A stretch of 64,000 bases of DNA, taken from NCBI RefSeq assembly GCF_964204645.1, contig NC_134025.1, positions 26,516,299 to 26,580,298 on the forward strand, written 5' to 3'. The notes under the pieces were generated by a model, which worked only from the letters and a program-made list of their open reading frames with translations, was not told where the DNA came from and searched no databases. Shown here piece after piece: positions 14,423 to 64,000 of the stretch (positions within the stretch are counted from its first letter, which is position 1; the number at the start of each line of letters is the position of its first letter). The stretch is from Tubulanus polymorphus (lineage: Eukaryota; Animalia; Nemertea). A program made the position numbers and the translations under genes.

Positions 14423-15079
14423 CAACGCTTTATTTAATGAGACTATTCTCAATAAAGAATACAAATATAAATGATTTTTTTACCCAATTTTTTGTTTTGT
14501 TTAATCATTTGTATGGTCAGTCTGTCCATTGAATCACAGTACCAGGGATACTGGATGATCTAAGCTACAGTTCACCCCAAACTTCAAATACTAGCCCCTC
14601 TGCATTGAATGCCTGCCTTCTATCATGGGCGCCGAGTGCCCATGATTTTTACACACCATAACTGCCAAAAGTACTTGGCTTTTACTTAAGCCTTACTCTC
14701 ACAAACCATGTGGTTATTCAAGATGTCCAAATTTATGTTCCATTGTATTATCTATCATAAGCTCCGAGAATTGTGGATACAAGAGGAATTACTGGAAACA
14801 TGTAGCTCCATTGTTGAAATAACTGCATTCAAATGTATCCGGTAACCAGGTAAATAGATAGGGACAATCCTTGTTAAAGAATTTTAAAAAAAACATGATA
14901 GTATTCATGTATTCATATTTATTATCGAAATATTTATGAAACTATACATACGCTTTATAAAAAGAAACATGCTGCTAACACAATACCCATTTATACCAGG
15001 TAATTACAAATACTGGTAAACAGTACTTCTAAAAAATGTACACTATATAAATTCGTCTTCAGTCACTGATAAGGTTTTA

Positions 15080-17145: not shown

Positions 17146-17212
17146 ATGTTGGCAATGTGTGGTGTCTTGATATTCGTTTTATCATTGCTCTACGGAATCG
17201 GCAATGGGCAAG
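17146..17212 (+). CDS. Signal-peptide exon S1 of gene A
   Basis: MLAMCGVLIFVLSLLYGIGNGQ followed by G|gtaag (67 nt, phase 1). Confidence 0.85.
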
Positions 17213-20200
17213 GTAAGAATCGGCGGATTTAGAAAGCGTGGCAAGCAATATTAAATTTTTGGCGCGCTCGTCGTCAGTTTCTACAATATGATTATATGAA
17301 TTTTAGAGATTTTCTTCAAATAAACATTTACCAATTTGCCGCTTAAAATCCTGGTTAATCGAATGTTACGATGTTTGGTGTAATCAAAATTGATATTCGA
17401 TAAACATGTATATCGATACATATGATTAAAAGATACTTTTTGAATACGGTCAAGTTAGGACGCACTATTATCAGAGTGTCGTAAGATTGATCATAATGAG
17501 ATCACACGCATGTATACTCATGAGCCTAAACGGAAAAAAATAACTACCATTGGAAATAAATAGGATTGGTCGTTTCACAACTTGAAAAACAATTCTTATC
17601 ATAAATTGTAGATTTACAAATGACATCATTCACGACAAGTCCAGCCACATTTTACCTGGGTGAAGCACAGAATGCCGTTCCTCTAACGATTAATATAGAA
17701 AATGCCGATTCTTCAAACGTGATTCCTGCTGCAACATCTCCAAATGAGAACTATGTTTTCACATTCCAATTTGCAACGGGTACAACTCAAATTGGTTCAG
17801 TTATTACAATAAGCGGTATTACACTAGCAGAAAGGCAAGTGGGTCTTGCAGCAGCGACTACTCTAACATTTACAGGTGCTACAGCAGATTATCCTGCATT
17901 AGATGCAGTCACTTGTCCAGCAGCTACTCATCTATGTATGACTGTTGCCGAAAGTAGCACCGCTTACACAGATGCAGTAACAACTAATAATCAAGCATGT
18001 ATAACTATAACAAGAGTTTGCCAACCGGGTAAGTGCTTCTATACTTGAATCTCTGATGAATTTTAGAGATAGATTAATTCTAGAATGAATTGATTTTCAT
18101 TTAGACCCAACGGCTTCTACAGGTCCAACATGGGTTGGACTAACTACACTACCACAGGGTACTGCCACATCGGTAACGTTTGACTTACCAATACAAAATG
18201 TAGCTGCATCGGGACAAGGAAATGATATCGTAGCTGCACCTACGGGCACGAAAAACTTTGCTACGGAATTGTATTTTGCGTCAGATAGCGCCGGAGCAAC
18301 AGCAGTTACAGGGAATGTCGCGGCTACAGTGTCATCGAATGATGCCGCAGCTTTACCAGCAGATTCATCGACTACAGTTACTCTTCGAGCGACTGGAACT
18401 GTAACTTTACCATCTGCCATTTGCTATACTACCGACTTCTTGTGTGCCCGTGTGAAAGAAGGAGCTTCGTGTAAATGGGCTGATGCTGGCTCAACAAACA
18501 ATGTAATGTGTTCCTCGATAGTGTCAGTGAAAGCTTGCGATCCTGGTTTGTATAGATTTCTTACATTGTATTTACCGTATGGGATACCCATAAAATGAAC
18601 GGTCTTTGCATTTTCAGACCCTATCACAAAGACATTTACACCACTTAGTACAGCTGAGTATATTCAACCAAACACGTTCACGTTAACATTTGATATCGTT
18701 TTCGAAAACACTGCTCCAGGCGGTAATTCAGATATAGCCTCAGTAACGGCTCCTAATTCCAATTTCAAAGTCGACATAATTTTGTCTAATATTGACATGA
18801 CGACTTGTGCTGCGGGTTCAGTGTCGATTTCATCTACTTCAAATGTTGACCAAACAGTGTCTCTAGCAAGTGGAGCAGTAACAAGTACAATATCTGGCAG
18901 TGCTTCAATAACGGTGCCTTCAGCCACATCAGACTGCAATGATATGCGGTATATTTGCGCAAGGTTGAACGTCCCCGCAACAGCATCTTACACAGATAAA
19001 GACCTCACAAACAACTGTAAATGCGTCGATATATCGGCTCAGAAATCGTGCTTTCCTGGTACGTCTTATGATAATTTTGAGAAAATAATTTAGCCATTTG
19101 CATGAACGTGTTAGTTAATTATGCAGAAGATTTTACACGATTTTATTCATAATAGATCTAAAGCTGAATAGTATAACGGGTACGCCAGTATCAGGAGTTC
19201 TAAATGATGCATCAGCCACAAATTATAAAATCACAACTGCCTTGAAAAATAATGCCGTGAATTCAGCAATCTACTCAGGAAACAATATTCTAGCTACAAC
19301 TGGGACCGATTACAACTACGATATATCGGTTATCATTTCTAATGTTGATATCGGTGCTGGTGGAACTGATACTCTTGGACATTCTGCAATATCTATTTCA
19401 TCATATACAACACCAGCGCAAAGACAAACAGCTTTGGCAGCTCAGGCAACTACGTCGATCGTTGATATCGTCATGAGTATAACGATTGACCCGGCTTACT
19501 GTGCGAATGCGCTGTATTTATGTGCAACTGTGTCACGAGGTACCAACGCGAATTTCCCCACGGAAACAATCCTTGCAAACAATGCCCAATGTAAAGATAT
19601 ATCAGCAACTTCAGATAAAACATGTACACCAGGTAAGTACATTGTACGGCGAAAAGTCATTTTATCACAGTTATGAAATGACTTATGACTGGCGTGTGTA
19701 GTCCGTTGTCATTGCCGAATGTATGAATAATACAAAAGGTATCTTATTCATTTTTAGATCCTGTTATAAATACATTCACAGTATCATCGGCTCATAATTT
19801 TATTACTGGAGTTACTGTAGCTTCCGCCGCATTTGACATAACAATTGAGAACAGTGTCACTTCAAATGCTGATATAGCGGCTGCAACAGGAGGCAATATT
19901 AATTTCAAAACGAACCTGATTCTTGCTAGTGCTGATATGGTGACATGTACTGCAGGATTTACAAGTACAGTTTCAACGGTCAGTAGTCAAGTAGCACTAG
20001 CATCAGGAGCCACCACATCAGTAATCTCAGCTACAGGATCAGTAACAATGCCAACTGTAACAGCGGATTGTAACAATGCTAACTTTCTATGCGCGCAACT
20101 AGTAGCTGGAACTGGAGCAACTTATACAGATGGTGACACTACGAATAATTGCAAATGCGCGGATATAACTGCACAGAAATCCTGTTTCCCAGGTCGTATA

Positions 20201-23200
20201 ACATCTCTAATTACCCAGAAGTTGTTGCTCAGTTGTCTAAAAACATATCCTAGTTTAAACCGTCTTGAATTTCAGATATTGATGTTCTATCCATTGTGTC
20301 AAATGGCCCTTTGACTGCTGGAGAGAAAATAAATGATCAATCAGCCATTGATTATCAATTCAACCTTAATTTGAAAAATGTTGCAACAGCGGGTCTAGGA
20401 AATCACATCTTACAGGCTACTGGTGCAAGTGATTACAACTATGTAGTGACCGCATATCTGTCAGATAACGATGTCAGAGGTGGAACTGCTGATACTTTGT
20501 CACTTGGAAATATCGCCTCATTGACTTATACTTCCGGATCAGCATCAACGGAAAGAAAAGCAGCAATGGCAGCCCAGGCTACGCATTCATTAACATCGAT
20601 AAATATCAACTATCAGATACCTGATTTAACGAAATGTTTGACCGTCACATATTTATGTGCTACTGTTACTCAAGGAACAAACGCGCAATATGCAGCAGAA
20701 ACAGTAACAACTAATAATGTTCAATGTGTTGATATCAGTGCTGATATACAATGTAGTGCAGGTATGATAAACTGAAGTCATGCTTGAAGAAGAATGTTTT
20801 AATGACTTTCTAATGGTACCATTATTTTTGTTACAGATCCAGTGATCAAGACGTTCACTCCACTTTCCACAGCGGTGTACATTCAACCTAACACGTTCTC
20901 ATTGACATTTGATGCTGTCTTTGAAAACACTGCTTCAGCAGGACACACTGACATTACGGCAGTAACAGCTCCTAATTCTAACTTCAAAGTCGACTTAATC
21001 CTGTCTAATATCGATATGACAACGTGTACTGCGGGTTCAGTCTCAATTTCTTCTACATCAAATGTTGACCAAATTGTTGCCCTTTCGAGTGGAGCCGTTA
21101 CTAGTACAATATCCGGTAGTGCGTCAATCACAGTGCCTTCAGTCACCGCTGACTGTAATGATATAAGATACGTTTGCGCAAAGTTGAATGTACCATCAAC
21201 TGCATCATATACAGATAGGGATCTCACAAATAACTGCAAATGTGTCGATATAACAGCCCAGAAATCCTGCTTTCCGGGTGCGTTCTAATTGGATTTAGAT
21301 AATGTTTTGAATCAATTGAGAGGTCAACCAGCTTGGAATAATTTGATCGATATTTCTTGATATTTTAGATTTAAAGATGACCAGTATAACAGGTGCTCCA
21401 GTATCTGGAACTCTAAATGACGCATCTACAACAAGTTATAAGATCACAACAGCCTTGAAAAATAATGCAGTTAATACGGCAGCTTACTACGGAAATAACA
21501 TCCTCGCCACGACTGGGACCGATTACAACTACGACATATCAGTTATCATTTCTAATGCTGATATCGGTGCTGGTGGAACTGATACTCTTGCACATTCTGC
21601 AATTTCTATTTCATCATATACAACACCAGCTCAAAGACAAACAGCTTTAGCAGCTCAGGCAACTACGTCAATCGTTGATATCGTCATGAGTATAACGATT
21701 GACCCGGCTAAATGTGCGAATGCTCTGTATTTATGTGCAACTGCGTCACAAGCTGCCAACGCAAAGTTTGCGGCTGAAACCATTCTAACAAATAACGCTC
21801 AGTGTAAAGATATATCAGCAACGGCGGATAAAATATGTACACCAGGTAATTTCATATGAATATTCGTGATAGTCGATACACATATCCTTTTCACACATAA
21901 CTCAATGTTCTAATCGACTTGATTTCAGATCCTATCATCAAAACATTCTCAGTAGCATCGACGAATCATTTTATCACTGGAGTCGCTGTAGCTGCCGCAG
22001 CGTTTGATATTACATTTGAGAATAGTGCTACTACAAATGCTGATATAGCAGCTGCGACAGGAGCAAATATCAATTTCAAAGCAAACCTCATTCTTGCTAG
22101 TGCTGATATGGTGACATGTACTGCAGGATTTACAAGTACAGTTTCAACTGTCAGTAGTCAGGTAGCACTAGCATCAGGGGCTACCACAGCCACAATTTCA
22201 GCAACTGGATCAGTAACAATGCCAACTGTAACTGCGGACTGTAACAATGCTAACTTTCTATGTGCGCAACTTGTGGCCGGAACTGGTGCAACTTATACAG
22301 ATGGTGACAATACGAATAATTGTAAATGCGCGGATATTACTGCGCAGAAATCATGTTTTCCAGGTAAAATCGATTTATGCACTGATAATTGGTAAACATC
22401 TTGTGTGACTTCAATCGTATGTCATAAACTGTAACTACATGTAAATACCAATATACAGTTGAAGAAATATATCGGCATGTATACCTCATGGAAAAATAAA
22501 TTCGCATAGAATGATTCCTTTGTAGATATCGACGTGGTGGCAATCGTGTCTAATGGTCCCGTGACTGCTGGGGAAAAACTGAATGATCAATCAGCCATTG
22601 ATTATCAATTCAACCTTAATTTGAAAAATGTTGCAACAGCTGGTCTAGGAAATAATATCTTACAAGCTACTGGTGCAAGTGATTTTAACTATGATGTGAC
22701 CGCATATCTGTCAGATAACGATGTCAGAGGTGGAACTGTCGATACTTTGGCACTTGGCAATATCGCCTCATTGACTTACACTTCAGCATCAGCATCGACG
22801 GAAAGAAAAGCAGCAATGGCAGCCCAGGCTACACATTCATTAACATCGATAAATATCAATTATCAGATACCTGATTTAACGAAATGTTTGACAGTCAAAT
22901 ATTTATGTGCTACTCTTACCCGAGGAACAAACGCGCGATATGCAGCAGAAACAGTTACAACTAATAATGTTCAATGTGTTGATATCAGTGCTGATATACA
23001 ATGTAGTGCAGGTATGATAATAAAAGCCACCCCTGAATCAATTCTTCCACCCATCCCGAATGATGACCCTGAACTAGCAAAAAATTATTCAATATTGTTT
23101 TTACAGATCCAATAATCAAGACGTTCACTCCACTTTCCTCAGCGGTGTACATTCAACCTAACACATTCTCGTTGACGTTTGATGTTGTTTTTGAAAACAT

Positions 23201-26200
23201 TGCTTCAGCAGGACACACTGATATAACGGCAGTAACAGCTCCTAATTCGAACTTCAAAGTCGACTTAATCCTGTCTAATATCGATATGACAACTTGTTCT
23301 GCGGGTTCTGTCTCAATTTCCTCGACTTCAAATGTTGACCAAACTGTTGCTCTTTCGAGTGGAGCCGTTTCTAGTACAATATCCGGTAGTGCATCAATCA
23401 CAGTGCCTTCAGCCACATCAGACTGTAATGACATGAGATATGTTTGTGCAAAGTTGAACGTCCCTGCAACAGCATCTTATACAGATAAAGACCTTACAAA
23501 CAACTGTAAATGCACCGACGTATCCGCACAGAAGTCTTGCTTTCCTGGTGGGTTTAAACAAATCAAAGGCCGTTCAAATTCTATAACTTTTTACATCCAT
23601 TAATTTATGCATCGACATGAAAATGATTAAGTTTATATTTCTGCTTTATATGTTTACTTCATCTTTGTAGATATTCAAATGACCAGTATAACAGGTGCTC
23701 CAGTATCTGGAACTCTAAATGACGTATCAGCTACAAATTATAAGATCACGACAGGTGTAAAAAATAATGCAGTAAATACAGCAGCTTACTATGGAAATAA
23801 TATCCTCGCCACGACTGGGTCCAATTACAACTACGATATATCAGTAACCATTTCTAATGTTGATATCGGTGCTGGTGGAACTGATACTCTTGGACATTCT
23901 GCAATATCTATTTCATCATATACGACACCAGCACAAAGACAAACAGCTTTGGCAGCTCAGGCAACTACGTCGATCGTTGATATCGTCATGAGTATAACGA
24001 TTGACCCGGCTAACTGTGCGAATGCACTGTATTTGTGTGCGACTGTATCTCGAGGAACCAACGCCAATCTTCCTGCGGAAACCATTCTCACAAATAACGC
24101 TCAATGTAAAGATATATCAGCAATCTCTGATAAAATATGTACACCAGGTATTTAAGGATACAGGGAATAACTGACAAATGTTGTATGTTTTATTCTAGAT
24201 ATATTGTTTTATTGTAGATAAAATTCAGATTTGGTTTCTTTTTAGATCCTATCATAAAAACCTTCTCAGTCGCTTCGACGAATCATTTTATCACTGGAGT
24301 CGCTGTTGCCGCCGCAGCGTTTGACATTTCATTTGAAAACATCGTTACTACAAATGCTGATATAGCAGCTGCAACAGGAGGCAATATTAATTTCAAAACG
24401 AACCTGATTCTTGCAAGTGCTGATATGGTGACATGTACTGCAGGATTTACAAGTACAGTTTCAACTGTCAGTAGTCAAGTAGCACTAGCATCAGGGGCTA
24501 CCACGTCAGTAATCTCAGCGACCGGATCAGTAACAATGCCAACTGTAACAGCGGACTGTAACAATGCTAAGTACCTATGTGCACAACTTGTAGCTGGAAC
24601 TGGTGCAACGTATACTGACCGGGATTCCACGAATAATTGTAAATGCGTCGATTTAACTGGACAGAGGTCATGTTTCCCAGGTATAAGCCTCGTTTTTATA
24701 TCATTGGTTTTACTATATCCATCCGCTTAAGTAATGGTGCTATTCAAATACCTTTACCTATTCATTTTAGATATCGATGCTGTAAGTATAACCTCCAACG
24801 GTCCGGTCCATGCTGGAGAGAAACTGAATGACTATTCAGCAATTGATTACAGATTCAGTTTAAATCTTCAAAACGTAGCTACAGTTAGCATTGGAAATGA
24901 TATACTACTTGCAACTGGTGCAAGTGATTATAACTATGTCGTGACTGCGTATCTGTCAGATAATGATGTCAGAGGTGGCACTGCCGATACTTTGTCATAT
25001 GGTAATATCGCTTCATTGACTTATACCTCAGCATCAGCGTCGACGGAAAGAAAAGCAGCAATGGCAGCCCAGGCTACACATTCATTAACATCGATAAATA
25101 TCAACTATCAGATACCTGATTCAGTGAAATGCGTGACAACAAAGTACTTATGCGTAACCGTCGATCGAGGGACAAATGCACAATACGTAGCGGAATCAGT
25201 TACAAATAATAATATTCAGTGTTTAGATATAAGTGCCGATATCTATTGTAATGCAGGTAAATAGGCGTGATAATACATGTAACCTTCTTGATACTGATGT
25301 TTCGATGAGTTTGTTGACCGCCGCCAGTCTAAGGGGTATCAGCTTGTTTTCAACTCGTATTATTTTAAGACAATTGCTTTAGTAATCTTTTATGCTAGAC
25401 AGTTCAATACTTGAAATAGGTTGTTTATGAGCCATATATTTCGCAATTACTTCGTCTTCGTCGCAAGGCATTTTGTCAATAGAATTATACATACCTCCCT
25501 GAATGTAAATGACTTTTCAACAAAAGATATTTGTCGACCGTAACTGCTCTAATCTGGTTTTCGTGACCACTCACTAATTCCACCGAAGCGTTGAAAAATA
25601 ATCTAATCTTTGGCCATTAGTAAACATTTCAGCGAATGAGTGAATTGTTTTGCGCCTATGTTACATATATTTCTGACCAAGAGCGGCGGTTTTCATCGAG
25701 AAAGGGAATAACTAAATGTCTGATAGACCTCACTTTCAAAATATCTTTGTTATGGATTAGGGAAAATACAATGGGGAAAATAGTTTTGGGTTTGCTATGG
25801 ATTTGCTCATTTTTAATGAGTACGGTGATCGGACAAGGTACGTAAGTTTCTTGGGTGATTATCCAAGTAGGATGATCAGCGTTTCTGTTCATCGAGAAGC
25901 TATTATATGTGACTGGTCGGCAAAGGCAGCTTCTTGCGACCGAATATCTTTTCTTAAGAAAATTTCTAAATTGATTCTGAAATGGTAATCCTTGCCATCC
26001 ATGCTAATATATGACGACTTTTTAGGGAAATGAACCAATGATAAAAGCTTGCTAAAATTAATTGTAATATTCTTCAATTGGTTGGTAATGATATAGATAG
26101 CGAAGACTTGATTCCATTCCATATTTGTAGATTTGGAAATGACTTCGTTCACAACAAATCCAGAAACATTCTACCTGGGTGAAGCACAGAATACTGTTCC

Positions 26201-29200
26201 ACTCACGATTAATATAAGAAATGCCGATTCGTCAAACGTGATTCCTGCTGCAACATCTCCACATGAGAACTATGTTTTCACATTCCAATTTGCAACGGGT
26301 ACAACTCAAATTGGGCCAGCAATTACTATAAACGGTATTACACTAGCAGAAAGACAAGCGGGTCTTGCGGCAGCGACTACTCTAACATTTACAGGTGCTA
26401 CAGCAGATTATCCAGCACTGGATGCTGTAACATGTCCAGCAGCTACTCATCTATGTATGACTGTTGCCGAAAGTAGCACCGGTTACGTAGATACACTTAC
26501 AACCAATAATCAAGCATGTATAACTGTAACTAGAGTTTGCCAACCGGGTAAGTGCTTCTAAATAATGAATCTGCGATTTTTGTATCTACAAGAACAAAGA
26601 AGTTCTACTGGGAATTCATCTTTTCCAGATCCAACGGCATCTGCGGGTCCAACTTGGGTTGGACTTACGACCTTGACCGCAGCAACAGCCACAGCGGTTA
26701 CGTTTGACTTACCAATACAAAATGTAGCTGCATCTGGACAAGGAAATGATATCGTAGCTGCACCTACGGGCACGAAAAACTTTGCTACGGAATTGTATTT
26801 TGCGTCAGATAGCGCCGGAGCAACAGCAGTTACGGGGAATGTCGCGGCTACAGTGTCATCGAATGATGCCGCAGCTTTACCAGCAGATTCATCGACTACT
26901 GTTACTCTTCGAGCGACTGGAACTGTAACTTTACCATCTACCATTTGTTATACTACTGACTACTTGTGTGCCCGTGTGAAAGAAGGAGCTTCGTGCAAAT
27001 GGGCTGATGCTGGCTTAACAAACAACGTTAAATGCTCATCGATAGCGTCAGTGAGAAACTGCAACCCAGGTATCATCGAAGGCTTTAACGCTATTTTGTG
27101 AGGATTGATTGTGTAATACCTTTCTGAAAACTGCTTTGATATTTCAGATCCAGTAATTAAGACGTTCACTCCACTTGCATCAGCGCATTATGTCCAGCCA
27201 AATACGTTCACTTTAACATTTGATGTCGTCTTTGAAAACACAGCTCCAGGTGGTAATGCAGACATAGCCTCGGTGACAGGTCCTAACTCAAATTTCAAAG
27301 TTGATATAATATTGTCAGATATTGACATGACCACTTGTACAGCGGGTTCGGTGTCGATTTCATCTTCATCAAATGTTGACGAAACGGTGGCTTTAGCAAA
27401 TGGAGCGGTAACTAGTACAGTATCTGGCAGTGCTACGATTGCAGTACCTTCAGCTTCATCTGATTGTAATAATATAGCATATGTTTGTGCTAAGTTGAAT
27501 GTTCCTTCAACAGCCTCTTATACGGATAGAGACCTCACAAACAACTGCAAATGTGTCGATATTGTAGCACAAAAGTCCTGTTTCCCTGGTAAAGACATTT
27601 TTTTCTAACATTTTAATATTCCCAACTTGGGAAATAACTCAAATCACACATTTTGATAAAATATTTTATTCTGTATTGTATAGATGTCAAGATGAACAGC
27701 TTAACAGGTGCTCCAGTATCAGGAACACTAAATGATGCATCCGCCACAAATTATAAGATTACATCTGTCCTGAGAAATAATGCTGTAAATACGGCAGCTT
27801 ACTACGGAAATAATATTCTGTCCACGACTGGGTCCGATTACAACTACGATATATCAGTTATCATTTCTGATGCTGATATCGGTGCTGGTGGAACTGATAC
27901 TCTCGGACATTCTGCAATATCTGTCTCATCATATACAACACCGGCACAAAGACGAACAGCTTTAGCGGCCCAGGCAACTACGTCGATCGTTGATATCGTC
28001 ATGAGTATAACGATTGACCCAGCTAAATGCGCGAATGCTCGATATTTATGTGCAACTGTATCACGAGGTACCAACGCAAATTTCCCCGCAGAAACAATCC
28101 TCACAAACAATGCACAATGTAAGGATATATCAGCAACCTCAGATAAAACATGTACACCAGGTAAGAAAAATAGATCATTTTAACAAATACATTTCTTTTT
28201 GATCAACAATTGATATTTCGAGAGTGAGCAATTTTTCAGTCAAGTGGGGATTACTATTGGTTATGTTATTGAAATTCACAACGAGATAAACTCATCAAAT
28301 TCATCTCCATTCACAAAAATGATGTCATTCTCAATTTCAGATCCCGTGATAACTACCTTTTCCATTGCATCAACGGACCGTTTTATTACTGGAGTTGCAA
28401 CTACTACGTCATTCGATACTAAATTTCAGAATATCGCAACAACTAATGCAGATATATTGGCTGCTACTGGGGGTAATATCAACTTCAAAACTAACATATT
28501 CTTGGCAAACGCTGATATGTTGATATGTACATTACCGGGAATAACAACTTCTGTATCCACTGTAAGTAGTCAGGTAGCAATTGCATCAGGAGCCACTACG
28601 GCAACCATCGGAGCAACAGCATCAATAACAATGCCAACTGTAACAGCGGACTGTAACAATGCTAATTATTTGTGCGCGCAACTTGTGGCTGGAACTGGTG
28701 CAACTTATACTGACGTGGACGCTACAAACAATTGTAAATGTGTTGATATAACTGCGCAGAAATCATGTTTTCCTGGTGAGTTTTAGCAATTTACTAATTG
28801 TTGCATCTAATCTACCATTAAGAATTATTGAAACAACGGTATGTATGAATTACCTCTATTTATTCAAGATATCGATGTGGTGGCAATAATATCAAACGGA
28901 CCTGCGACGACTGGTCAAAAACTGAATGACCAATCAGCAATTAACTACAAATTCAGCTTGAACCTCAAAAACGTTGCGACGGCGGGTCTAGGAAATGATA
29001 TCTTGGAAGCTACTGGAACCACCGATTATAACTACGTAGTGACTGCATATCTGTCAGATAATGATGTCAGAGGTGGCACTGCCGATACATTGTCACTTGG
29101 TAATATCGCTTCATTGACTTATACCTCAGCATCAGCATCAACTGAAAGAAAAGCAGCAATGGCAGCTCAGGCTACACATTCATTAACATCGATAAATATC

Positions 29201-32200
29201 AACTATCAGATACCTGATTTAACGAAATGTCGAGCAGTCACATATCTATGTGCTACTGTTACTCGAGGAACAAACGCGCAATATGCAGCAGAATCTGTTA
29301 CAACTAATAATGTTCAGTGTCTTGATATCAGCACTGATATACAATGTAGTGCAGGTATGATCATTGAAAATACCTCTTGGCTTTTTAATTTTGTTTGAGG
29401 GATGACTACCTATATTAAGATAGCCATAACCTTCCTTTTCCAGATCCTACCATCAAGACATTTACCCCGCTATCGTCAGCAATATACATTCAACCAAATA
29501 CGTTCTCATTGACGTTTGATGTTACTTTTGAAAACGCAGCTTCTGCAGGACACACTGACATTACGGCAGTAACAGCGCCTAATTCTAACTTCAAAGTCGA
29601 CTTAATCCTTTCTAATATCGATATGACAACGTGTACTGCGGGTTCAGTCTCAATTTCGTCTACATCAAATGTTGACCAAACTGTTGCTCTTTCGAGTGGA
29701 GCCGTTACTAGTACAATATCCGGAAGTGCATCAATCACAGTGCCTTCAGTCACCGCTGACTGTAATGATATGAGATATATCTGCGCTAAGTTGAATGTTC
29801 CTACTTCTGCGTCATATACTGATAATGACCTCACAAACAACTGCAAGTGCGTCGATATAACAGCTCAGAAATCCTGCTTTCCTGGTATGTTAGTTTATGG
29901 AATTATTGTGGAAATCTTTGTTTTATTTCAGCTCTTTAGTTCTATAAGTAACATATAAGTGTTTCTTTTTAGATTTAAAGATGACCAGTGTAACAGGTGC
30001 TCCAGTATCTGGAACTCTAAATGATGCATCAGCCACAAATTATAAGATCACAACTGCTCTGAAAAATAATGCAGTAAATACGGCAGCTTACTACGGAAAT
30101 AATATCCTCGCCACGACCGGGTCCAATTACAACTACGACATATCAGTTATCATTTCTAATGCTGATATCGGTGCCGGTGGAACTGATACTCTTGGACATT
30201 CTGCAATATCTATTTCATCATATACGACTCCGGCACAAAGACAAGCAGCTTTGGCAGCTCAGGCAACTACGTCGATCGTTGATATCATCACGAGTATAAC
30301 GATTGACCCAGCCAAATGTACAAACGCTTTGTATTTATGTGCAACTGTGTCTCGAGGAACCAATGCAAATTTCCCTGCAGAAACCATCCTCACAAATAAT
30401 TATCAATGTAAAGATATATCAGCTACCTCGGATAAAATATGTACACCAGGTACTTTCATATGAATATTCTTGATAGTCGATACACATTCCCTTTTCATAC
30501 ATAGCTTGATGTTGTTATGGACTATATTTCAGATCCTATCATCAAAACCTTCTCAGTCGCATCGACGAATCATTTTATCACTGGAGTCGCTGTTGCTGCC
30601 GCAGCGTTTGATATTACAATTGAGAACAGTGTCACTATAAATGCTGATATAGCAGCTGTAACAGGAGGAAATATTAATTTCAAAACGAACCTCATTCTTG
30701 CAAGTGCTGATATGGTGACATGTACTGCAGGATTTACAAGTACAGTTTCAACTGTCAGTAGTCAGGTAGCATTAGCATCAGGAGCTACCACATCACCAAT
30801 TTCAGCAACTGGATCAGTAACAATGCCAACTGTAACAGCAGACTGTAACAACGCTAATTATTTGTGCGCTCAACTTGTTGTTGGGACTGGTGCATCTTAT
30901 ACAGATTTGAACACTACAAATAATTGTAATTGTGTCGATATATCTGCGCAGAAATCATGTTTTCCAGGTATACCAGAAAGTCATTGTATTGTTAAATAGT
31001 CGTTAGTTACTTTGTTTTGTAAATTTTCTGAATTCGGTTCGATAGATGGCCTTAACCACGTTTGGCGATTTACAAGGAATCCCGTGTAATTGCGTTAAAT
31101 GTTGTGTTGGGTTATTTGCTCCTTAACGTTTGATATCTACTAACATTAACACACTTTCTTCATTTTAGATATCGATTTGGTGGACATAAATTCTAATGGT
31201 CCGGTAACGCCTGGAGAAAAGCTTAATGATCAGTCAGCCATTAACTATAAATTCAACCTCAACATAAAAAACGTCGCCACCTCTGGTCTAGGTAACGACA
31301 TTTTGGAAGCTACGGGTGGAAGTGACTTTAACTATCAGTTGACTGCGTATCTGTCGGATAATAATGTACGAGGTGGCACTGCTGATACTTTGTCACTTGG
31401 TAATATAGGCTCATTGACTTATACATCTCCGAATGAACGAAAAGTAGCACTGGCCGCTCAGGCTACGCATTCCATCACATCGATAATCATCAACTACCAG
31501 ATACCTCATGCAGTAAAATGTTTATCCATCACTTATCTATGTGTTACTGTCGATCGAGGAACAAATGCACAATATGCGGCAGAAACTGTTACAACTAATA
31601 ATGTCCAATGTCTAGATATAAGTGCTGATATTCAATGTCAGGCAGGTCAGTTAATCGTGCACATCTTCAAATTCGGCAATAACGAAAACTTATAAATGCA
31701 TGTATATACATCTATGACTGCTGAATTGCATTTCAGATCCAATAATCAAGACGTTCACTCCACTTTCCACTGCGGTGTACATTCAACCAAACACATTCTC
31801 ATTGACATTTGATGTTGTTTTTGAAAACACTGCTTCTGCAGGACACACCGATATAACGGCAGTAACAGCTCCTAATTCTAACTTCAAAGTCGACTTAATC
31901 CTGTCTAATATTGATATGACAACTTGTTCTGCGGGTTCAGTGTCAATTTCTTCAACTTCAAGTGTTGACCAAACTCTAGCGTTGGCAACTGGAGCAGTGA
32001 CCAGTACAATATCTGGTAGTGCTTCTATTACGGTACCTTCAGCTACATCCGACTGTAATGACATTAGATATGTTTGTGCAAAGTTGAACGTCCCTGCAAC
32101 AGCATCATATACAGACAACGACCTTACAAACAACTGCAAATGTGTCGATATATCAGCACAAAAATCCTGTTTTCCAGGTATGTCTCGTACCCTGGTTAAC

Positions 32201-35200
32201 ATGTATTTCTTTTTAGATTCTTAATTTCGTTACCAGGCGATACTGAGTGTTCTAACAGATTAGATACGTATTAATGATTTAATACCTGAATTCTAAGTGC
32301 GTTTTGCTTCTTTTGCTCTGTAAATGTGCATTAATACTTAAAGAATAAACCATTGGTTTTTTTTGAAACCATGAACAGCATATTTCATATAAACATAAAC
32401 GTGCTAAGTGATTTCAATTGTATATCGTCTTGTAGATTTCAGGATGACCAGTATAACAGGTGCTCCAGTATCGGGAACACTAAATGACGCAACTGCTACA
32501 AGTTATAAGATTACGACAGCCTTGAAAAACAATGCAGTAAATACGGCAGCTTACTACGGAAATAACATCCTCGCCACGACTGCGTCCAATTACAACTACG
32601 ATATATCAGTAATCATTTCTAATGCTGATATCGGTGCTGGTGGATCTGATACTCTCGGACATTCTGCAATATCTGTTTCATCATATACAACACCAGCGCA
32701 AAGACAAACAGCTTTGGCAGCTCAGGCAACTACGTCGATCGTTGATATCGTCATGAGTATAACGATTGACCCGGCTAAATGCGCGAATGCTCTGTATTTA
32801 TGTGCAACTGTGTCTCGAAATACAAATGCGAATTGTGCTGCTGAAACCATTCTAACAAATAACGCTCAATGTAAAGATATATCAGCAACTTCAGACAAAA
32901 CATGTACCCCTGGTTCGTATAATTCTTGAATCGAACTCTCTGATATTACATCATCGGAAATAGAACGATAAACACACTCAAACGTGGTGAACGGATAATA
33001 AGATAAAAACCCACTACCTACAAATTAAAAGAATTTAAAAACAAGAAATTCATTTACTCGAACAATCTAAAAAAATTTTGAACTTCGAATATTTTATAAA
33101 TTTAGATTGTTCGAATAAATGAATTTCTTGTTTTTAAATTCTTCTTATTTGTAGATAGTGGGTTTTTATCTAATTATCATCGGAAATATTTATATGTGTA
33201 TACATATGATTCTTTTCGTGTATTCATACTTTTTTTATAATAGATCCTATCGTCCACACGTTTACGATTCCATCAACCGATCTCTTTATAACTGGGGTTG
33301 CTGTCACGCCGTCAATCACCATCAAATTCCAGAATACTGCAACTACAAACGCAGATATATCTTCTGCAACTGGTGCAAACGTAAATTTCAAAACGAATCT
33401 GATTTTGGCAAACGCTGATATGTCCACGTGCACCCTACCAGGAATAACGAATACAATATCTACCGTGAGTAGTCAAGTGGCGCTTGCATCAGGAGCGACC
33501 TCATCCGCCATTTCAGCAACTGGATCGGTAACGATGCCAACTAGTATCCCGGATTGTTACAATGCAAACTACCTATGTGCTCAACTTGTGGCCGGCACCG
33601 GTGCAACTTACACAGATGGTGACACTACAAATAATTGTAAATGCGCAGATATTACTTCACAAAAGTCGTGTTTTCCGGGTAAGTCAACTTAGACCTTCTA
33701 TAAAAATTTGAGATAAATTCATGTATATATATCATGTATTGGCATCAGTCATACATAGTTTTGATTTGCACTAACAGATATCGACGTGGTGGCAATCGTG
33801 TCTAATGCTCCTGTCACTGGTGGAGAAAAACTCAATGATCAATCTGCTATCAACTATAAATTCAACCTCAATCTACAAAATGTCGCGACTGCAAGTTTAG
33901 GAAACGACATCTTACAAGCTACTGGTGCGAATGATTTTAACTATGATGTGACAGCGTATCTGTCCGATAACGATGTCAGAGGTGGAACTGCTGATACTTT
34001 GGCACTTGGTAATATCGCCTCGTTGACTTACACATCAGTATCAGCCTCAACTGAAAGAAAAGCAGCAATGGCAGCCCAGGCTACACATTCATTAACATCG
34101 ATCAATATCAACTATCAGATACCTGATGCAACAAAATGTTTGAGTGTACGATATCTATGTGCCACTGTTGGTCGAGGAACGAATGCAAAATATGCTGCAG
34201 AAACAGATATTACTAATAACGTCCAGTGTCTTGATATCAGTTCTGATATAAAATGCAGCCCAGGTCAGTTTACAAGACATTTACCATATTGTGCATTTAT
34301 CCCATGTGAATACTGTTTTATTATGTTAATATAAATTATTGTATAATATTCCAGATCCAGTTATCAAAACATTTACTCCGCTTGCATCAGCTCTCTACAT
34401 CCAACCGAACACATTGGCTTTGTCTTTTGATGTCACCGTAGAGAATACTGCATTAGGTGGAAACTCGGATATAGCCTCAGTAACGGCTCCTAATTCTAAT
34501 TTCAAAGTCGATGTCATTCTGTCTAATATTGACATGACGACTTGTGCTGCTGGTTCAGTTTCAATTTCATCTACTTCGAATGTTGACCAAACTGTGTCTC
34601 TAGCAAGTGGAGCAGTAACAAGTACAATATCTGGAAGTGCTTCAATCTCAGTACCTTCTGCCATATCAGACTGCAATGAAATGAGATACGTTTGTGCGAA
34701 GTTAAACGTCCCTGCAACAGCATCTTATACAGATAAAGACCTCACAAACAACTGCAAATGTGTTGATATATCAGCACAGAAATCCTGCTTTCCAGGTATA
34801 TGATGATCCAATGATCTAACGTGCATATCGGCCTCTTCATAAATATGAATCATAATAAACATTACCCGGTGATAATTTTTTACAGATGTAAAAATGACAT
34901 CTATAACTGGCGTTCCAGTATCGGGGACACTTAATGACGCATCAGCCACAAATTATAAGATCACAACCGTCTTGAAAAATAATGCAGTAAATACGGCTGC
35001 ATATTACGGAAATAATATCCTCGCAACGACTGCGTCCAATTACAACTACGATATATCAGTAATAATTTCTAATGCTGATATCGGTGCTGGTGGAACTGAT
35101 ACTCTTGGACATTCTGCAATATCTATTTCATCATATACGACACCGGCGCAACGACAAACAGCTTTGGCAGCTCAGGCAACTACGTCGATCGTTGATATCG

Positions 35201-38200
35201 TCATGAGTATAACGATTGACCCGGCTAAATGCGCGAATGCACTGTATTTGTGTGCAACTGTATCTCGAGGAACCAACGCAAATTATCCTGCGGAAACCGT
35301 GCTCACAAACAACTATCAGTGTAAAGATATATCAACAACCTCGGATAAAACATGTTCCCCTGGTTAGTGAGGAAAGACTTTTTTATTATCGTACATTTGC
35401 TATATGCTGATACTATTTTGAAACAAAATAAGCATAATGGCAAATTGTTTTGTTCATGATGATTATCTGACATGTATATAAATTATTTCAGATCCAATTG
35501 TGAGTTTGTTTACAGTTTCATCTACTGATCGTTTCATCACCGGAGTTGCAACCACCACGTCATTTGACACGAAATTCCAAAATATCGCAACAACTAATGC
35601 AGATATATCGGCTGCAACTGGGGGTAATATCAACTTCAAAACTAACATATTCTTGGCAAACGCTGATATGTTAATATGTACATTACCGGGAATAACAACT
35701 TCTGTATCCACTGTAAGTAGTCAGGTAGCAATTGCATCAGGAGCCACTACGGCAACCATCGGAGCAACAGCATCAATAACAATGCCAACTGTAACAGCGG
35801 ACTGTAACAATGCTAATTATTTGTGCGCACAACTTGTGGCTGGAACTGGTGCAACTTATACTGACGTGGACGCTACAAACAACTGTAAATGTGTCGATAT
35901 TACTGCGCAGAAATCATGTTTTCCTGGTGAGTTTGTACGGTACTGAATGATAAACCTTTTCATATTTCAATATGATGCATTATTTTCGTTACCTTTTTTG
36001 AAAGATATCGATGTAGTGAGCATAGCCGCCAATGGACCTGTGACGACTGGGGAAAAACTGAATGATCAAACAGCAATTAACTACAAATTCAGCCTGAATC
36101 TCAAAAACGTTGCGACGGTGGGTCTAGGAAATGACATCTTGGAAGCTACTGGGACCACTGATTATAACTACGTAGTGACTGCATATCTGTCTGATAATGA
36201 TGTCAGAGGTGGCACTGCTGATACTTTGTCTCTTGGCAATATTGCCTCATTGACTTACACCTCAGCATCAGCATCAACGGAAAGAAAAGCAGCAATGACA
36301 GCCCAGGCTACACATTCATTGACCTCGATAAATATCAACTATCAGATACCTGATGCAACAAAATGTTTGACAGTGTCGTATCTATGTGCTACCGTTGGTC
36401 GGGGAACAAACGCGCAATATGCAGCAGAAACAGTTACAACTAATAATGTTCAATGTGTAGATATACGTACTGTTATACAATGCAGCCCAGGTTTGTTCTA
36501 AATACCACTCATGCGTCTAACATTCCTTATCCGATAATTTTATGTTTTTTTATTTTACTGAACCTTTTTTTAGATCCAATCGTCCAAGCATTTACACCGA
36601 CGTCAGCAGTTGTCTTTCAACGAGGAGTGGCAGTATCGACGAGTTTCACGATTGTTCTTAAAAATGATGCACCTGCCGGTCACACTGATATACAAGCAGC
36701 ATCTGGAAGTGGAGTGAATTTTGATGTTTCTTTGTATTTGAGTGATGTAGATCTTTCTACTGGTGCCAACCCAACCGTTTCTTTGCCCTTTACGAGTGAT
36801 GTTTCTAAAGGTGACGCTCTGGCGCGAGCTGCTCTTCTTCCAGCTACTGGATCAATCAGTGGTACCTCAACAGTTACTATGCCAGATGCATCAACTTGTA
36901 ATAGTATCAAATTCCTGTGTGCTCATACCGCTACTGGAACTGGAGCGACCTTTACGGACAGAGATTTAACAAATAACTACAAGTGCACCAATATTGTTGC
37001 TCAAAAGTCTTGTTATCCAGGTAATGGTAAGAACTTCTTCAGCTTTCGTCCCATTTCCATGTAGCTGTACTGAATGTTTTGTTTCTATCCTCTCATATCT
37101 AGATATCAATATAGCAAGTCTGACTGGCGCTGCTTTAAATGTTGGTGAATTGATCAACGATAATCTACCTATAGATTTCCGATTAACCATAGGTCTTCAA
37201 AATGTAGCCCCTACGAAATCAAATTACGGCAATGACATTTACGCAATTTCTGGTATTGGCAATTACAATTATGACGTTACAGCATATGTCTCTAATGCTG
37301 ATGTTGGAGCAGGTGGTATCAACTCACTGTCCAATCATGCAATTTCACCGTTAACTTACACAACGGCATCCCAAAGACAAGCTGCATTAGCAGCCGGTGC
37401 GACACATTCGTTGACGAATATTGATACAAATTATCAGATCCCAAGTGCAATTTGTATAGATGCAACTCATCTATGCGTTCAAGTATCTGCTGGAAATAAT
37501 GCAAAATTCACCGAAGATGTGCTGACTAATAATATCAAGTGTATATCCCTTGGAACAACGAAAGTGTGCACAGCAGGTAACGTAACCATAGATGAAGTAT
37601 CCTGCAATGTAATAATTCCGAGAAAAATTGTTTAACCTTTGTCATTTTTGTAATTCTATAGATTGGGACTGTATTAGTTTTGCTGATGATAATGATCCGA
37701 TATACAAAGACAGCCTAGCTACACCAATAACCTTTACGGCCAATGTAAAACACATCGGTCCAGATCCACCGGCGCGAAATATCCCATCAGTTGTAGGAAC
37801 AACAAGTAACTACATATCCTTTCTTTTTTCTTATTTTCGGGGGTATAACTTAAATCTTTACATTTAACTTCATCTTTGTCGCAGGTACAAATTTCGTTCT
37901 CGAGATTCGACTAGCTCAATTTGATATTCGTGCAGTTGGTATAGCATCTGATACATTGAATCTGATTCAGACATCAGCTCCCACAACTGCAGATGATCTG
38001 AAAGTTGGCATGAACTACGGGGAGACAATAGCGTTCACTGGAACGGCCACTATAACTGTGCCATCTGCACAATGTGACAATATAATATACATGTGTGCAA
38101 AAATAGGACAAGGTACAGCGACAGGGCTTTATAACCTCGCGTCGAATGATTGGAGTTGCACGAATATAAAAAACAGAGTCAGCTGCGCTATAAGTATGTT

Positions 38201-41200
38201 ATCACAAATGTTGTGTGTATCAAAAAGTCATTGAAAATAATTCTCGTTTTCATTGATATAGATATGTTGCATTACAGATGCTCAAATACCAGCGTTCACA
38301 AATCCACCGGAACTGACACTGGGTGTTGCTCAAACTGGGGTAGCCCTAGACATTAATGTTAAGAATGCCGCTACCACGGACAATATTGCTGCTGTAACAG
38401 GAACTAATGAAAACTTCGTCTTTACGTATACCTACGAACAAGAAACAGCACCGGGGGTATACTCAGTAATATCGACGCTTACAATTAGTGGACTGACTGT
38501 CGCAAAACGCCAGGTTGGTATAGCGGCTACAGCGACTCACACATTTACTGGAGCTTCCGTTGATTTTCCAGCTTTAACGACGTATACCTGTCCCCTTGTG
38601 ACACATGTCTGTGTAGAAGTACAAAAAGGGACGGGAGCGTCATACATTGAGTCCGCTACCACTGATAACAGAAAGTGTACCCAAACGCAGAGGATGTGCT
38701 TTCCAGGTAATGAATCATTATTGATGGTGATAAAATCAAATCTTTAAACAAAGGCGTTAATGACGTTATCTTTCATTTTAGACCCTACGTGGAAGGCACC
38801 AGCACCTAACAATCCAACTTGGGTAGGACTGGCAAATATTCCACAAGCCACAGCTACTACGGTTACATTCGATGCCATCATATTCAATACGGCTCCGACC
38901 GGACTGGGCAACGATATTCTTGCTGCCACAATGGGGGACAAAAATTATGCCCTCGAACTATACTTTGCATCTGATAGTAGTGGATCTTCATCATTAACAA
39001 GTAATTTTACTGCAACCCTCAGTACAAATGATCAGGCAGCTTTACCGGCTGATAGTGGGACAACATCTGTAACGATCCGAGCATCAGCAACTGTGACACT
39101 TCCTACAGCTAATTGTCCTCAGGCCGATTATCTTTGTGGCCGAATAAAACCAGGAACTGGTCCAAAATGGGTCGACAATGTGTTAACTAATAACGTTTCC
39201 TGTTCCACAATATTGTCCGTCAGAGGTTGTAATCCAGGTAAGCCCTAAATTGGGTTATGATTTATTTCATTTTCAAAGAATGTAATATGTTGATTGATGT
39301 AGATGCATGTTCCATTCTACAAATATAATTTTCAGATCCAATTGTGAATTCATTTACGGCACCAACAGACACGTTTGTAAGATCAGTTAATGTTCCAACC
39401 TCAGGATTTGATGTCATTTTACAAAATATAGCACCCGGTGGAAACTCAATCATAACAGCTGCTTCTGCGGGTAATGTTAATTTCAACATCACTTTGACTT
39501 TGACGGACGTTGATTTAAGCACAGGAGCGACAGCAACAGTTTCCGTAGTTTCAACAACCACTATCAATAAAGCGGATGCATTAGGAAGCGCCAATTCATT
39601 GTTGCCTACTTCTGGTAATTTTGCGGGAACAAGTTCTATTACGATGCCGGATTCAGTAAACTGCAACAAAATCAAATTTATTTGCGCTAGAACCGAAGAA
39701 GGAACTGGTGCAACGTTTACTGATGTTAATTCAAACAACAATTACAAATGCAGCAATATAGTTGCGCAGAAAACATGTTTCCCAGGTAAAATTATAGATT
39801 ATTCAGCACCATCAATTGTTCTCCAATGTTATCATTTTTGATCATATAACTACAAACTATTCCGTTTATAGTTCTATGATTTAGTTTTCTGTCAGATTTT
39901 GAAGCGAGCATTACTGATAAGTGGTGGATTATTTGCCTTTGCCTTTGTAGATGTCGACATTACGAGTCTATCGGCGTTAGGACCAGTCACCGGTGGTGAT
40001 AAACTAAATGATCGTGCAGCAATTAACTACAAATTCACTGTTAATTTACAAAACGTTGGAGCAACAACCGCCGATTACGGCAACAACATTCTAGCAGCAA
40101 CCGGTGGAAACTCTAATTACGAAGTAAAATGGTACATCTCCGATGCCGATGTCAGACCCGGTGGTGGGACGAACACTTTGGGTATTGCGCAAAGTGGAGT
40201 TGTGACTTACACAACTCCAGCGCAGACACAAGCGGCGATGGCAGCTGGAGCAACGACTTCCATAGTTGACGTCCAAATAAATTACATGATCCCACAAGCG
40301 AAGTGTCCTAATGCCGCTTACTTATGCGCATACGTGCAGGCTCACAGTACCGCGAAATACATCGAAACACCATTAACGAATAATTTGTATTGCTCTAGCA
40401 TACTGGCTGATAAGAATTGCGCACCAAGTAAGTTTCTACATCTAAGTTCCCTTCATCTAAAAGATTAAGTTCCAATACATACATTATACATCTACCTAGA
40501 CAATGTCTCGACATACAGTTTCAAATGTTTCATTTAAGTTTTTACCAATCTAAATGGAGCTGTATCTGTACCAGAAAATACGACATCAGGTTCCGATATA
40601 TTTAACGCCACAGCCACTGACGGCAATGGTGATACACTTACTTATTCAATCCAAGCTGGAGTCGGGCCATTCACTATCAATACTGCCAGTGAGTGTGAAA
40701 TATCCACATATTTTCATACAGTCATTTTTGATAATAACTTCTCTAATTGACTACGTGTTATTCATTTTAGCTGGAGATATCTCGTTAACGGGAACTATCA
40801 ATTTCGAGGTTGATCCTACAACATACTCTTTAGGCGTTTATGTTACTGACGGAGTCTACAGCGTCACTGATAAAGTATTGACGATTACAATCACAGATTC
40901 GAATGATCCTCCAGTTGCAAGCAATTTAGCACCCAATGTAGCTAACGCGGCAGCTACTGTTACCTTTGCGGAAGATTATACTGGTCAGGTATTTGATGCT
41001 GCACATACAGATGAAGATTTGCCGGCACAAACAATCACATATTCTATTCAAAGCGTTTCATCAGGCGGTACCAATGTTGCGAGTTATCCATTTTCAATTG
41101 ATGGAGCCAATGGTAAGCATCAGTTTAGTTCTAAACATGTATATGAACAGTATTTCCATATGTTTCTAGATGATTATGTATGTTTTATTTTCTATACAGG

Positions 41201-44200
41201 GCAAATAACAGTTGTCAGTCCTTTTCTTAATTATGAGGCTTACACCGTTTACGAGGTCATCATACTAGTTACAGATGATGGGTCCCCAATCAAATCTAGT
41301 AGTGGTACCCTGACAGTGAGCGTCACTAATGTACAAGAACCTCCTGTTTTCACAAAGCTACCAACAACAGTGAATATTCTTGAAAGTGAGACAGTTGCAA
41401 AAACAGTTTTTACCTTGGCAGCGGTTGATCCTGAAAATGATGCTGTAAGTTACAAATTGTCCGCAAGTCCTTTCGATGGCAAATTCTATATGGATGGTAA
41501 CAGTAAGTAGATTATCAACTATTGGTGCTGACAGAATTTCAGAACTTCTTATTCCTAACCATTCATCACGTAGATTAAAAGTCAAGTCTACACACATCAT
41601 TTTATTATAGGTATTAAACACAATGCTAATCCAGGATTTGATCACGAATTCAAATCAAGCTACATACTTAGCGTTTTAGCATACGATGGGAATGTTCCTG
41701 GTAATGTTGAAAGGTTAACTGTGATGATAGATAACGTTCCCGAAGTTCCAAAGTTTACCAACCTTCCTGGTGTGGCTACTGTCCCAGAGAATAGGGTTAA
41801 TTCTGCAACGATTTTCAAGGTTTGCCCTCAGAGGATAACTTGAGTATTTTGATGATAGATTGTACTTCAATGATTTTAAACATTTCTACAACTTTTTATC
41901 AAAGGTGCAAGCAGTTGACGAGGAAAATGATGCAATCACTTATAGTGTTGTTTCTGTTTATCCTCCCGAGGGTTCGAGTAAATTTACATTGGATTCAGGT
42001 GAATATTTTTTCATTGACAAATAATATTTCATTATACAAATAAAATCATTTTATTTACATGAAAATTATATTTCAAAATAAGCTATGTTATCATCAAAAG
42101 ACCGTTTGTATAAGAAAATCTATGCTATATTAGATTATCTTTTATTTGCAGCTACTGGTATTCTCACTCAATTAGCAAGTCCTCAGTTAGACTTTGAAGC
42201 GTATTTCAATTCGTACGAACATTTGATAAAGGCTTGTGATTCGAGTGGCTGCAGCTCCGCGAATCTAACAGTTGACGTTCGTAATATCAACGAGGTTCCA
42301 GTAACGAGTACACCAAAGAAAACCATTAGAATAAAAGAAACAGTTAGTTCATAATGTCATTTCTAATAAATGTATTGCAGTAAAGAATTCAAATAACAAA
42401 TATTTATTTTCTCCGTTTTTCTTCTTTCAGGAAACTGGAAGTTACACCCATGTTCCAGTCCACAGTGATACTTCTTGTACTCAATTAACGACAATTTACA
42501 CTAGTTTGATTACAATGAGCGGCTGTACTGTTAATGTCGTAATGACTGATCTCGATAAATCAAACGGTTACCCGTCATCATTCTATGCAGGCAAGTAAAG
42601 AAACTACTTGATGTTTGGTTACCAATTGGTTTGCATTTTGGCAGCACTCCATTACTCTCTCATTTCGTTTTACAATTCTAGATATAACAGAAAAGGATAA
42701 TGGTGGACTCTTTGCGACAATCGGAATTGAAGTCGAAATACAGAATGTTAACGACGAAACACCCGTGTTCACATTAGGCTCAAATCCGAGTTCAACAGTC
42801 TCAGAAGATGCCACTTCTGGAACGACAGTATTTTCATTCACTGTTACCGACGCCGATTTACCTCCATTTGACATTTTTTCTATAACTGTCGATCCATCCA
42901 CTTTAGCATGGAACTATTTCCAAGCATCTATGATAAGTGCGTCGGTCGGGATTGTAACGGTTAAATCACCTCCAGATAGAGAATCTATTTCAACTATGTT
43001 AATAAAAGTGTTAGCAGTTGATAGTGATTTTGTCTGGGTTCCTGCAACTATTAATACTGGTCAGATTAACCAAACGGTCACCATCACAAATGTAAACGAC
43101 AATATTCCTGTAATGAGCAAAGATCTATACAATTGGGAAATATCATCTACGGCGAAAATGGGAAAATATATTGGTGTATTGTCAGCCACAGATGGAGATA
43201 TAGGTACGTGTATTGTTTGTAAGAGGATAGCTTCTTATCTCGAGTAAGAGATTGAGGCTTGCTCTTAATAGAATTTGCTTTTTTTTCCATTTTAGAGTTT
43301 AATATTGTAAGTTATGAGTTTCTGTACAGTTCAACTGAGTTCACATTAGGACAGTCTACTGGTGATGTAAATAGCCGCGTTACACCTTTACTCGACAAGC
43401 ATAAATACCTACTCTATGCTGTTGCCAAAGACAATGTACCAGTTCCTCCATCTTTTACCTCCTTGTAAGAAAGATTTAATAACGAAAATTAAGTTAGATT
43501 AACAGATGCATTGAATTCATGTTTCTTTTTATATTCATTCTCTATTCATCAGAGTTAGTACAATAAGAATTGACACCTACAATGAATCTGATGTTCTATC
43601 AAGCTGGTATACGAATAAAACGCTGGATTATTGGATACCTTCAACGATTCAAGACTTCTTAGCTGCAGCGAGTTCTGTTTGTGGAAAGTGTGTGGCAAGG
43701 CTTCACAATGTTTCTGATGTGGAGTACCGGTGTGTTTCCTATTAATCTTAGATCTAACAACGTCTTTTAATTTGTATTCATATTTTTCTCTATATCATTT
43801 CGATTTGCAGTACCAATTCGAAGCTTTTGCTTTACTTTCTACAAGATGATTCGACAAATCTTATTGGAAATATAGGCCGAAGAAAGGAGTTCATGAACGT
43901 TGATTCCTTGATAAATCTGTATACCGAAGATACCAATGGAACTCCAATACAGGCCATACAAACAAATGCCTTGTTTTCTGGGTTTCCCGTTTCGAAAATT
44001 GAAAGAACAGTTGCTTCATCTGAGGTTCCTTATAACTTCTGGAGGGACAATATTGGTGCTCACTTGTTGATTGGATCTGGCCAGTGTATAGCATTAGCTC
44101 TGGTTCTTGGATTTATCGCATGGGCAACCTATAAAAGCCACCCGGGGCCATTAAATAAACAGTGAGTTGAATTAAAGCCGAGTGGTTTAAAAGTAGATGA

Positions 44201-57660: not shown

Positions 57661-64000
<6,340 letters not shown>

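Follow-up and report, generated by a model that had tools for sequence, protein, structure and literature searches.

We report a second signal-peptide exon that lies in the middle of a long array of repeat-domain exons in the nemertean Tubulanus polymorphus; it is real, it is selected, and it is present in both of two neighbouring paralogs. We propose that the first of these, gene A, is a single cadherin-related gene with two nested promoters, of the type of C. elegans hmr-1A/B, in which the internal signal exon (S2) is skipped in the long form. We give this reading a probability of about 55%. The promoter at S2 would yield a 4788-aa protein with 25 repeats on a cadherin and predicted transmembrane (TM) anchor. 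The promoter at the upstream signal exon (S1), together with a predicted junction between the 25256 donor and exon A (26131), would yield a 6913-aa protein with 39 repeats on the same anchor; in silico, both frames are open.

The window, by which we mean the whole 64,000-nt stretch analysed, is animal DNA with short introns (72-130 nt for most of those in the domain arrays). A profile of 18 window exons found the RefSeq protein XP_074662363.1 (P0001; LOC141914919, Tubulanus polymorphus, Nemertea), whose single exons match minus-strand gene B at 100%. Gene A, on the plus strand, and gene B are convergent inverted paralogs with 79% identity over 1498 aligned tail residues. In both, a series of phase 1-1 exons, each with about 140-160 codons and a single domain, leads into cadherin repeats, a predicted TM and a short tail. 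Pfam finds only Cadherin and a weak Cadherin_4 on P0001, with no catenin-binding cytoplasmic domain; the cadherin part holds five Pfam Cadherin stretches, and their spacing suggests about seven repeats. The predicted TM of P0001 fell below the hydropathy cut-off, and the aligned segments of two relatives passed it. CDHR- and PCDH15-type cadherins have a SEA-like domain next to the membrane; the structure model of the membrane-adjacent segment here (pLDDT 38) is too poor for use.

The order of gene A is S1, A B (CDEF)x3, a 514-nt gap, S2, A B (CDEF)x4, G-M and the constant region (see table). The initial annotation had drawn much of this outline, and its coordinates hold: a first array that ends in an ordinary donor, a new signal exon at 25771-25837 after which the A-B-(CDEF) pattern begins again at 26131, and 14 domains upstream against 25 downstream (A, B, 4xCDEF, G-M).

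Features of genes A and B in the window, with positions counted from its first letter
Feature	Coordinates	Strand	Description
Gene A, signal exon S1	17146..17212	+	22 aa, phase-1 donor
Gene A, array 1	17612..25256	+	14 phase 1-1 exons, A B (CDEF)x3, one CARDB-like domain each, 2125 aa
Gene A, boundary exon F	24771..25256	+	ends GCAG|gtaaat, donor intact
Gene A, gap A	25257..25770	+	514 nt, putative site of the internal promoter
Gene A, internal signal exon S2	25771..25837	+	ATG exon, 67 nt, 22 aa, translation MGKIVLGLLWICSFLMSTVIGQ; phase-1 donor CAAG|gtacgt
Gene A, unit 2 array	26131..36490	+	A B (CDEF)x4, 18 domain exons
Gene A, domains G-M	36574..40427	+	7 domains; I split over two exons
Gene A, constant region	40539..44505	+	cadherin repeats, membrane-adjacent Cys-containing segment, predicted TM (~44060-44135), short tail, stop 44503-44505
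Gene B, upstream array	57661..64000	-	10 whole domain exons in the window, ending in a D exon with strong donor; start beyond the window
Gene B, internal signal exon	57012..56955	-	19 aa, phase-1 donor; no in-frame splice-in from the upstream array
Gene B, downstream unit	56853..45214	-	A-M (13 domains), cadherins, predicted TM; exon A from 56853

Mis-assembly or a haplotype duplicate was rejected on the spanning DNA contigs and the divergence of the paralogs. One contig (run X1) spans 25092-26292 with one differing letter and a depth of 34, like its neighbours, and a second (run X2) spans 25092-25831 across the boundary between array 1 and S2; both runs belong to a single study, and the assembly itself may have been built from X1. 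Tracts of 94-99% identity join gene A (36600-37000 and 38800-41000) to gene B, some of them across introns, with flanks at 50-70%. From their pattern they are likely to be gene conversion between the arms of the palindrome. Because conversion mixes the copies, exon trees are unable to date the layout against the split of the two genes. At 42591 gene A has a GC-AG intron (donor gcaagt) that the frame requires, and gene B has GT there. One intron holds a palindrome of about 220 nt (32960-33180) with a very high contig depth, 23,783 in its bin (run X1), and this element is likely a high-copy MITE.

Gene B repeats the layout of gene A: an upstream array, a gap (gap B, 648 nt, between the D exon at 57661 and the signal exon at 57012), a signal exon, A onward and a constant region. 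P0001 corresponds to its downstream unit from J onward. The model begins at an ATG inside exon I (51683, minus strand), read in a different frame, and contains none of the domain exons further upstream; this start is probably a model artefact, with repeat masking as a possible cause of the truncation. The arrays break at different exon types, F in gene A and D in gene B, so the two layouts may stem from separate events. Two exon-end remnants with donors (about 59560-59505 and 54520-54490, minus strand) lie inside gene B introns and look like decayed or partly duplicated domain exons, and another gene B intron holds a TA microsatellite of about 200 nt (63579-63776).

A scan for signal exons (ATG, hydrophobic core, small residue and phase-1 donor) gave exactly three matches on both strands of the 64 kb (128 kb): S1, S2 and the gene B signal exon. 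Its criteria were chosen post hoc, with the exons already seen. Shuffled gaps yielded such a match in 5 of 1000 cases for gap A and in 1 of 1000 for gap B. The three exons and their flanks show no alignment above shuffles at the DNA level, yet all keep the ATG, the hydrophobic core, a G-Q end and the phase-1 donor, and thus all three are probably used as starts. Upstream of S1 there is a usable acceptor opening at 17130 and a candidate donor at 17040, which makes a 5'UTR intron before S1 likely. S2 and the gene B signal exon have no good acceptor directly upstream, as expected of internal first exons that are skipped.

Array 1 itself bears the marks of a used coding sequence. Its 14 exons contain no stop, and mean dN/dS is 0.12 within the array (12 pairs) and 0.11 between array 1 and unit 2 (50 pairs), both at dS 0.6-0.9; the overall range of 0.11-0.15 denotes purifying selection. 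Moreover, array 1 holds no N-x-S/T sequon among its 167 Asn, against 39.8 in shuffles (none of 2000 as low), and the absence persists with one copy per class (0 against 16.1 expected). D-x-S/T (43) and S/T-x-N (44) are plentiful in the same array. Unit 2 has one sequon against 54.3 expected and the upstream array of gene B two against 28.7; over the roughly 7300 aa of the repeat arrays at 17612-36490 and 53287-63551, three sequons stand against some 137 expected. In the cadherin parts a depletion is not clear (8 against 12.5; 10 against 12.9). Sequons are also few in the domain parts of P0010 and P0021 and partly depleted in the crinoid protein, no depletion was seen in the three hemichordate proteins tested, and among the deuterostome proteins tested the loss is weaker or absent. 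The stop-free frame, the purifying selection and the missing sequons together argue that array 1 is a real product of the secretory pathway. The sequon loss points to ER passage and to selection that keeps N-glycans off the repeats; it offers no way to choose among the splicing models.

What, then, becomes of the donor at 25256? At 5.5 bits it is an ordinary one (rank 28 of 59 among the domain-exon donors of the window), and the boundary donor of gene B at 57661 ranks 10 of 59. The boundary exons of both genes are among the most diverged of their classes (dS 0.6-1.4 to paralogs; for exon F of gene A, 0.8-1.4 to all other F copies). They are thus old enough to have lost an unused donor. In a neutral-decay simulation, the retention of the donors was about 3-10 times more probable under use than under read-through (branch lengths 0.2-0.45), an advantage of continued use that falls below 2-fold if the boundary is young. 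With every domain exon in phase 1-1 and no good acceptor at S2, the next domain exon would be the in-frame partner of the orphan donor. No structural bar to such an F-to-A joining is apparent, since J, deep in the chain, is the closest match of A (43%); K, L and M likewise resemble B, G and D. We envision that a 5' segment with promoter, signal exon and repeats was duplicated in tandem without a terminator, in which case joining the next phase-1 exon would be the default outcome. Promoter choice, probably differing between cell types, would then determine how long a rod, extracellular and nearly free of N-glycans, is made, and the internal promoter may fall silent under read-through from the upstream one.

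Judged from the genomic sequence, the points in favour of nested promoters include the ordinary-to-strong boundary donors kept in both genes and, by analogy, a crinoid relative (P0003) whose 30-domain array comes with a TM, and the hmr-1A/B precedent described in PMC3216324. Against it, no protein model was found for the long form in the searches described below, and the joining introns, at 874 nt in gene A and 807 nt in gene B, would exceed every other intron of their arrays in length. Comparison of the three putative promoter regions gave no alignment above shuffles and no shared motif, at a resolution that short motifs could escape, and the CpG signal in the gaps is slight (observed/expected 1.14 and 1.27 against 0.89 in pooled introns). 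Also against it, the kept donors suit a short spliced terminal exon equally well, and cryptic acceptors lie closer than exon A with scores within the true range.

These last points lead to the main alternative, in which array 1 is its own gene and encodes a secreted 14-domain protein of about 2150 aa that has no anchor, a possibility that we hold only tentatively. Such a protein would be a soluble partner, or a matrix or tube component, beside the membrane protein, and it could coexist with the long form through alternative polyadenylation; nested isoforms and a separate secreted protein may thus both exist. Anchorless ends occur among relatives: the models of Glandiceps XP_077997940.1, Ptychodera XP_070535949-51 (with alternative short ends) and Asterias XP_071788223/24 all stop a few residues past the last domain, these being RefSeq models unconfirmed by RNA here. 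The genome is compact, too. How the protein would end matters. The initial annotation had proposed read-through or an AG at 25760, and both are weak. Read-through gives G-K-stop as described (TAG at 25262-25264), which we consider quite improbable as the true end: an in-frame stop as early, within two codons of the donor, follows 3 of 33 other gene A domain exons listed, and one within four codons follows 11 of 33, so that early stops are common in this gene. The AG (25759-25760) does lead to a stop at the eighth codon, but at -1.3 bits it falls short of all 59 true acceptors, the weakest of which has 1.9. A stronger version, absent from that annotation, would use a short terminal exon spliced at 25370, 25399 or 25633, where cryptic acceptors of 5-6 bits are followed by stops after 3-10 codons; we regard this ending as unlikely, if less so than read-through. 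These acceptors occur near background density (3 per 514 nt and 3 per 648 nt in the two gaps, against 6 per 1647 nt in ordinary introns and 28 per 7000 nt of intergenic DNA), and the exon A acceptors score above them (7.2 and 10.8). Gaps A and B share no terminal exon, in that they give no alignment above shuffles. The presence of both AATAAA and ATTAAA in gap B speaks for a secreted product and against nesting; gap A has neither, which counts against a secreted product, if weakly (chance of none 0.45). Finally, a terminal exon, a 3'UTR, a terminator and a promoter would all have to fit in 514 nt.

A different use of the same donor would be a choice of cassettes in the manner of sDscam, with array 1 joined to exon G (36574) and unit 2 skipped to give a protein of 4178 aa and 21 domains. 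We find this improbable. An F exon closes array 1 just as one closes unit 2 ahead of G, the joined frame is open, the G acceptor is strong (9.3 bits), and PMC4835542 describes chelicerate sDscam multi-exon cassettes with their own promoters that join a constant exon. However, splicing would have to pass over 18 exons with good acceptors, the gap shows neither similarity nor complementarity to the intron before G, and the upstream array of gene B ends in D rather than F. That intron is conserved between genes A and B, but it adjoins a 96%-identical tract, one of the 94-99% tracts for which gene conversion is the best reading. The broader notion of an independently evolved spiralian system akin to sDscam and protocadherins is doubtful as well, if slightly less so. 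Promoter choice would there select among cassettes of 14-18 CARDB-like, N-glycan-free domains, each spliced to a constant cadherin/TM part; the two inverted paralogs would convert each other, and their phase-symmetric exons would allow further combinatorial lengths. Least probable of all, and very unlikely in our view, is that S2 is retained as an internal exon by way of a weak acceptor (25727) or that array 1 is a relic of recent date. The former keeps the frame open over 111 nt (25727-25837, in frame with S2), but at 2.2-2.6 bits this acceptor is close to the low end of the true sites, and gene B has no in-frame equivalent. Pseudogene or relic status is rejected by the dN/dS of array 1, its 14 stop-free exons and the sequon loss. 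An operon with trans-splicing, which would draw on a putative nemertean spliced leader, gained no support in our literature searches (a term search of PMC7986045 gave 0 matches), which leaves it unsupported rather than disproved.

We then return to nested promoters as the preferred reading and to the family in which they would operate. On 12 of 12 window domain exons tested no Pfam family passes, none has a Pfam Ig match, and none reaches the gathering score of CARDB (PF07705). That threshold is passed by one of 17 relatives, Branchiostoma P0084 (35.2 against 22.7 bits). AlphaFold models the domain as a beta-sandwich, mostly strand, at pLDDT 83. Structural matches are middling (best Z 7.3; CARDB 3idu at Z 5.9, rmsd 3.9, 100 aligned), Foldseek gave no match at E<=0.001, and the Atlas neighbours are CARDB clusters (0.87-0.89), useful as leads only. 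We call the domain CARDB-like, not CARDB, a predicted Ig-like sandwich.

With HMMER, the 18-exon profile matched 428 proteins at E<=0.001; 150 of these were listed, and 20 of the 150 were looked up by name. Among the matches listed are proteins of Anneissia, Glandiceps, Ptychodera, Saccoglossus, Asterias, Branchiostoma and Dimorphilus. Relatives from crinoid, sea star, hemichordate, amphioxus and annelid come with a TM, with other modules or without an anchor. XP_074650262.1 is a Tubulanus paralog with four domains, cadherins and a TM, and P0021 is an unnamed relative with two domains. In the annelid Dimorphilus the same domain occurs in giant multi-pass proteins (P0076 and P0105), polycystin-like to judge by their hydropathy. 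No internal signal-like segment pointing to a nested start appears in the relatives' models, which would not show one. Word-based searches (models of 283-2000, 2798-5000 and 75-2797 aa, top candidates scored) found no model that covers the arrays, nor did the 150 of 428 HMMER matches listed, the sole search to cover models above 5000 aa; the same searches found no protein model of gene A. In run X4, presumed to be RNA, no contig matched 16500-36400 at 92% or 24500-44450 at 80%; with no housekeeping control alongside, this carries no information about expression. The literature listings searched, a coverage that leaves out most subscription papers, held no paper on this family, and a term search of PMC7544503 gave 0 matches.

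The rest of the window (1-16400) holds ordinary neighbour genes: the end of what we take to be a Numb-like gene, an HMA-domain gene that is probably the copper chaperone CCS (weak Pfam hit) and stands in head-to-head orientation to a presumably G2E3-like PHD-finger gene, and TMEM170 (Pfam pass). A transposase-like fragment at about 10400-10700 has no meaningful Pfam match.

The locus is a test case of how a partial 5' duplication turns into either a lengthened isoform or a new gene for a secreted protein, with two instances next to each other. It also reveals a family of giant cadherin-anchored repeat proteins with repeat numbers from 2 to 39, including arrays of about 50 exons for which no protein model was found. 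If the promoters are indeed nested, their choice sets the length of the ectodomain, and this may bear on the surface coats of ribbon worms or on long adhesive links.

How does this compare with known systems? The initial annotation had laid out the right set of outcomes (two promoters on one anchor, a separate secreted protein, or direct splicing to a later exon), of which we hold the first to be the most likely; its comparison with clustered protocadherins or sDscam is loose. Nested isoforms have the layout of hmr-1A/B and casy-1, and only direct splicing of array 1 to G would be sDscam-like. In clustered protocadherins the variable first exon encodes the cadherin ectodomain and the TM, and a conserved promoter element precedes each start. 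Likeness lies in the several starts upstream of one shared 3' region; in Tubulanus, however, cadherins and TM are constant and the variable part consists of 14 non-cadherin exons, whereas the protocadherin variable part is one large first exon, as stated in PMC4835542. The same paper describes sDscam-beta genes with tandem multi-exon 5' cassettes, each with a leader exon, that arose by 5' segmental duplication, and with cross-cassette splices that alter domain number. Gene A similarly has two tandem multi-exon 5' cassettes with leader exons and an origin by 5' duplication. Yet by sequence the Tubulanus genes are not related to Dscam, with its Ig and FNIII domains (no Pfam Ig match in the 12 domain exons scanned, and a shared part made of cadherins), their cassettes hold 14-18 domains rather than 1-2, two starts are seen in gene A, and splicing from cassette to constant region is putative.

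The closest parallels come from C. elegans. According to PMC3216324, alternative promoters of hmr-1 produce HMR-1A with 2 and HMR-1B with 14 cadherin repeats, and the short isoform differs from the long one only by a small unique first exon; in casy-1 (a versus b/c), PMC5864096 places promoters inside an intron. As in these genes, S2 and the gene B exon are small unique first (signal) exons inside a long gene, the short form of gene A shares all downstream exons, and the long frame stays open in silico once S2 is skipped. Unlike classical cadherins, P0001 shows no catenin-binding tail by Pfam. Unlike in hmr-1, the extra part of gene A is made of CARDB-like rather than cadherin repeats and is a copy of the 5' end of the short form itself, two inverted paralogs share the layout, and the long junction is a predicted one. 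The likely mechanism is of a known kind; what is new here is the type of repeat, the occurrence in twin genes and the loss of sequons.
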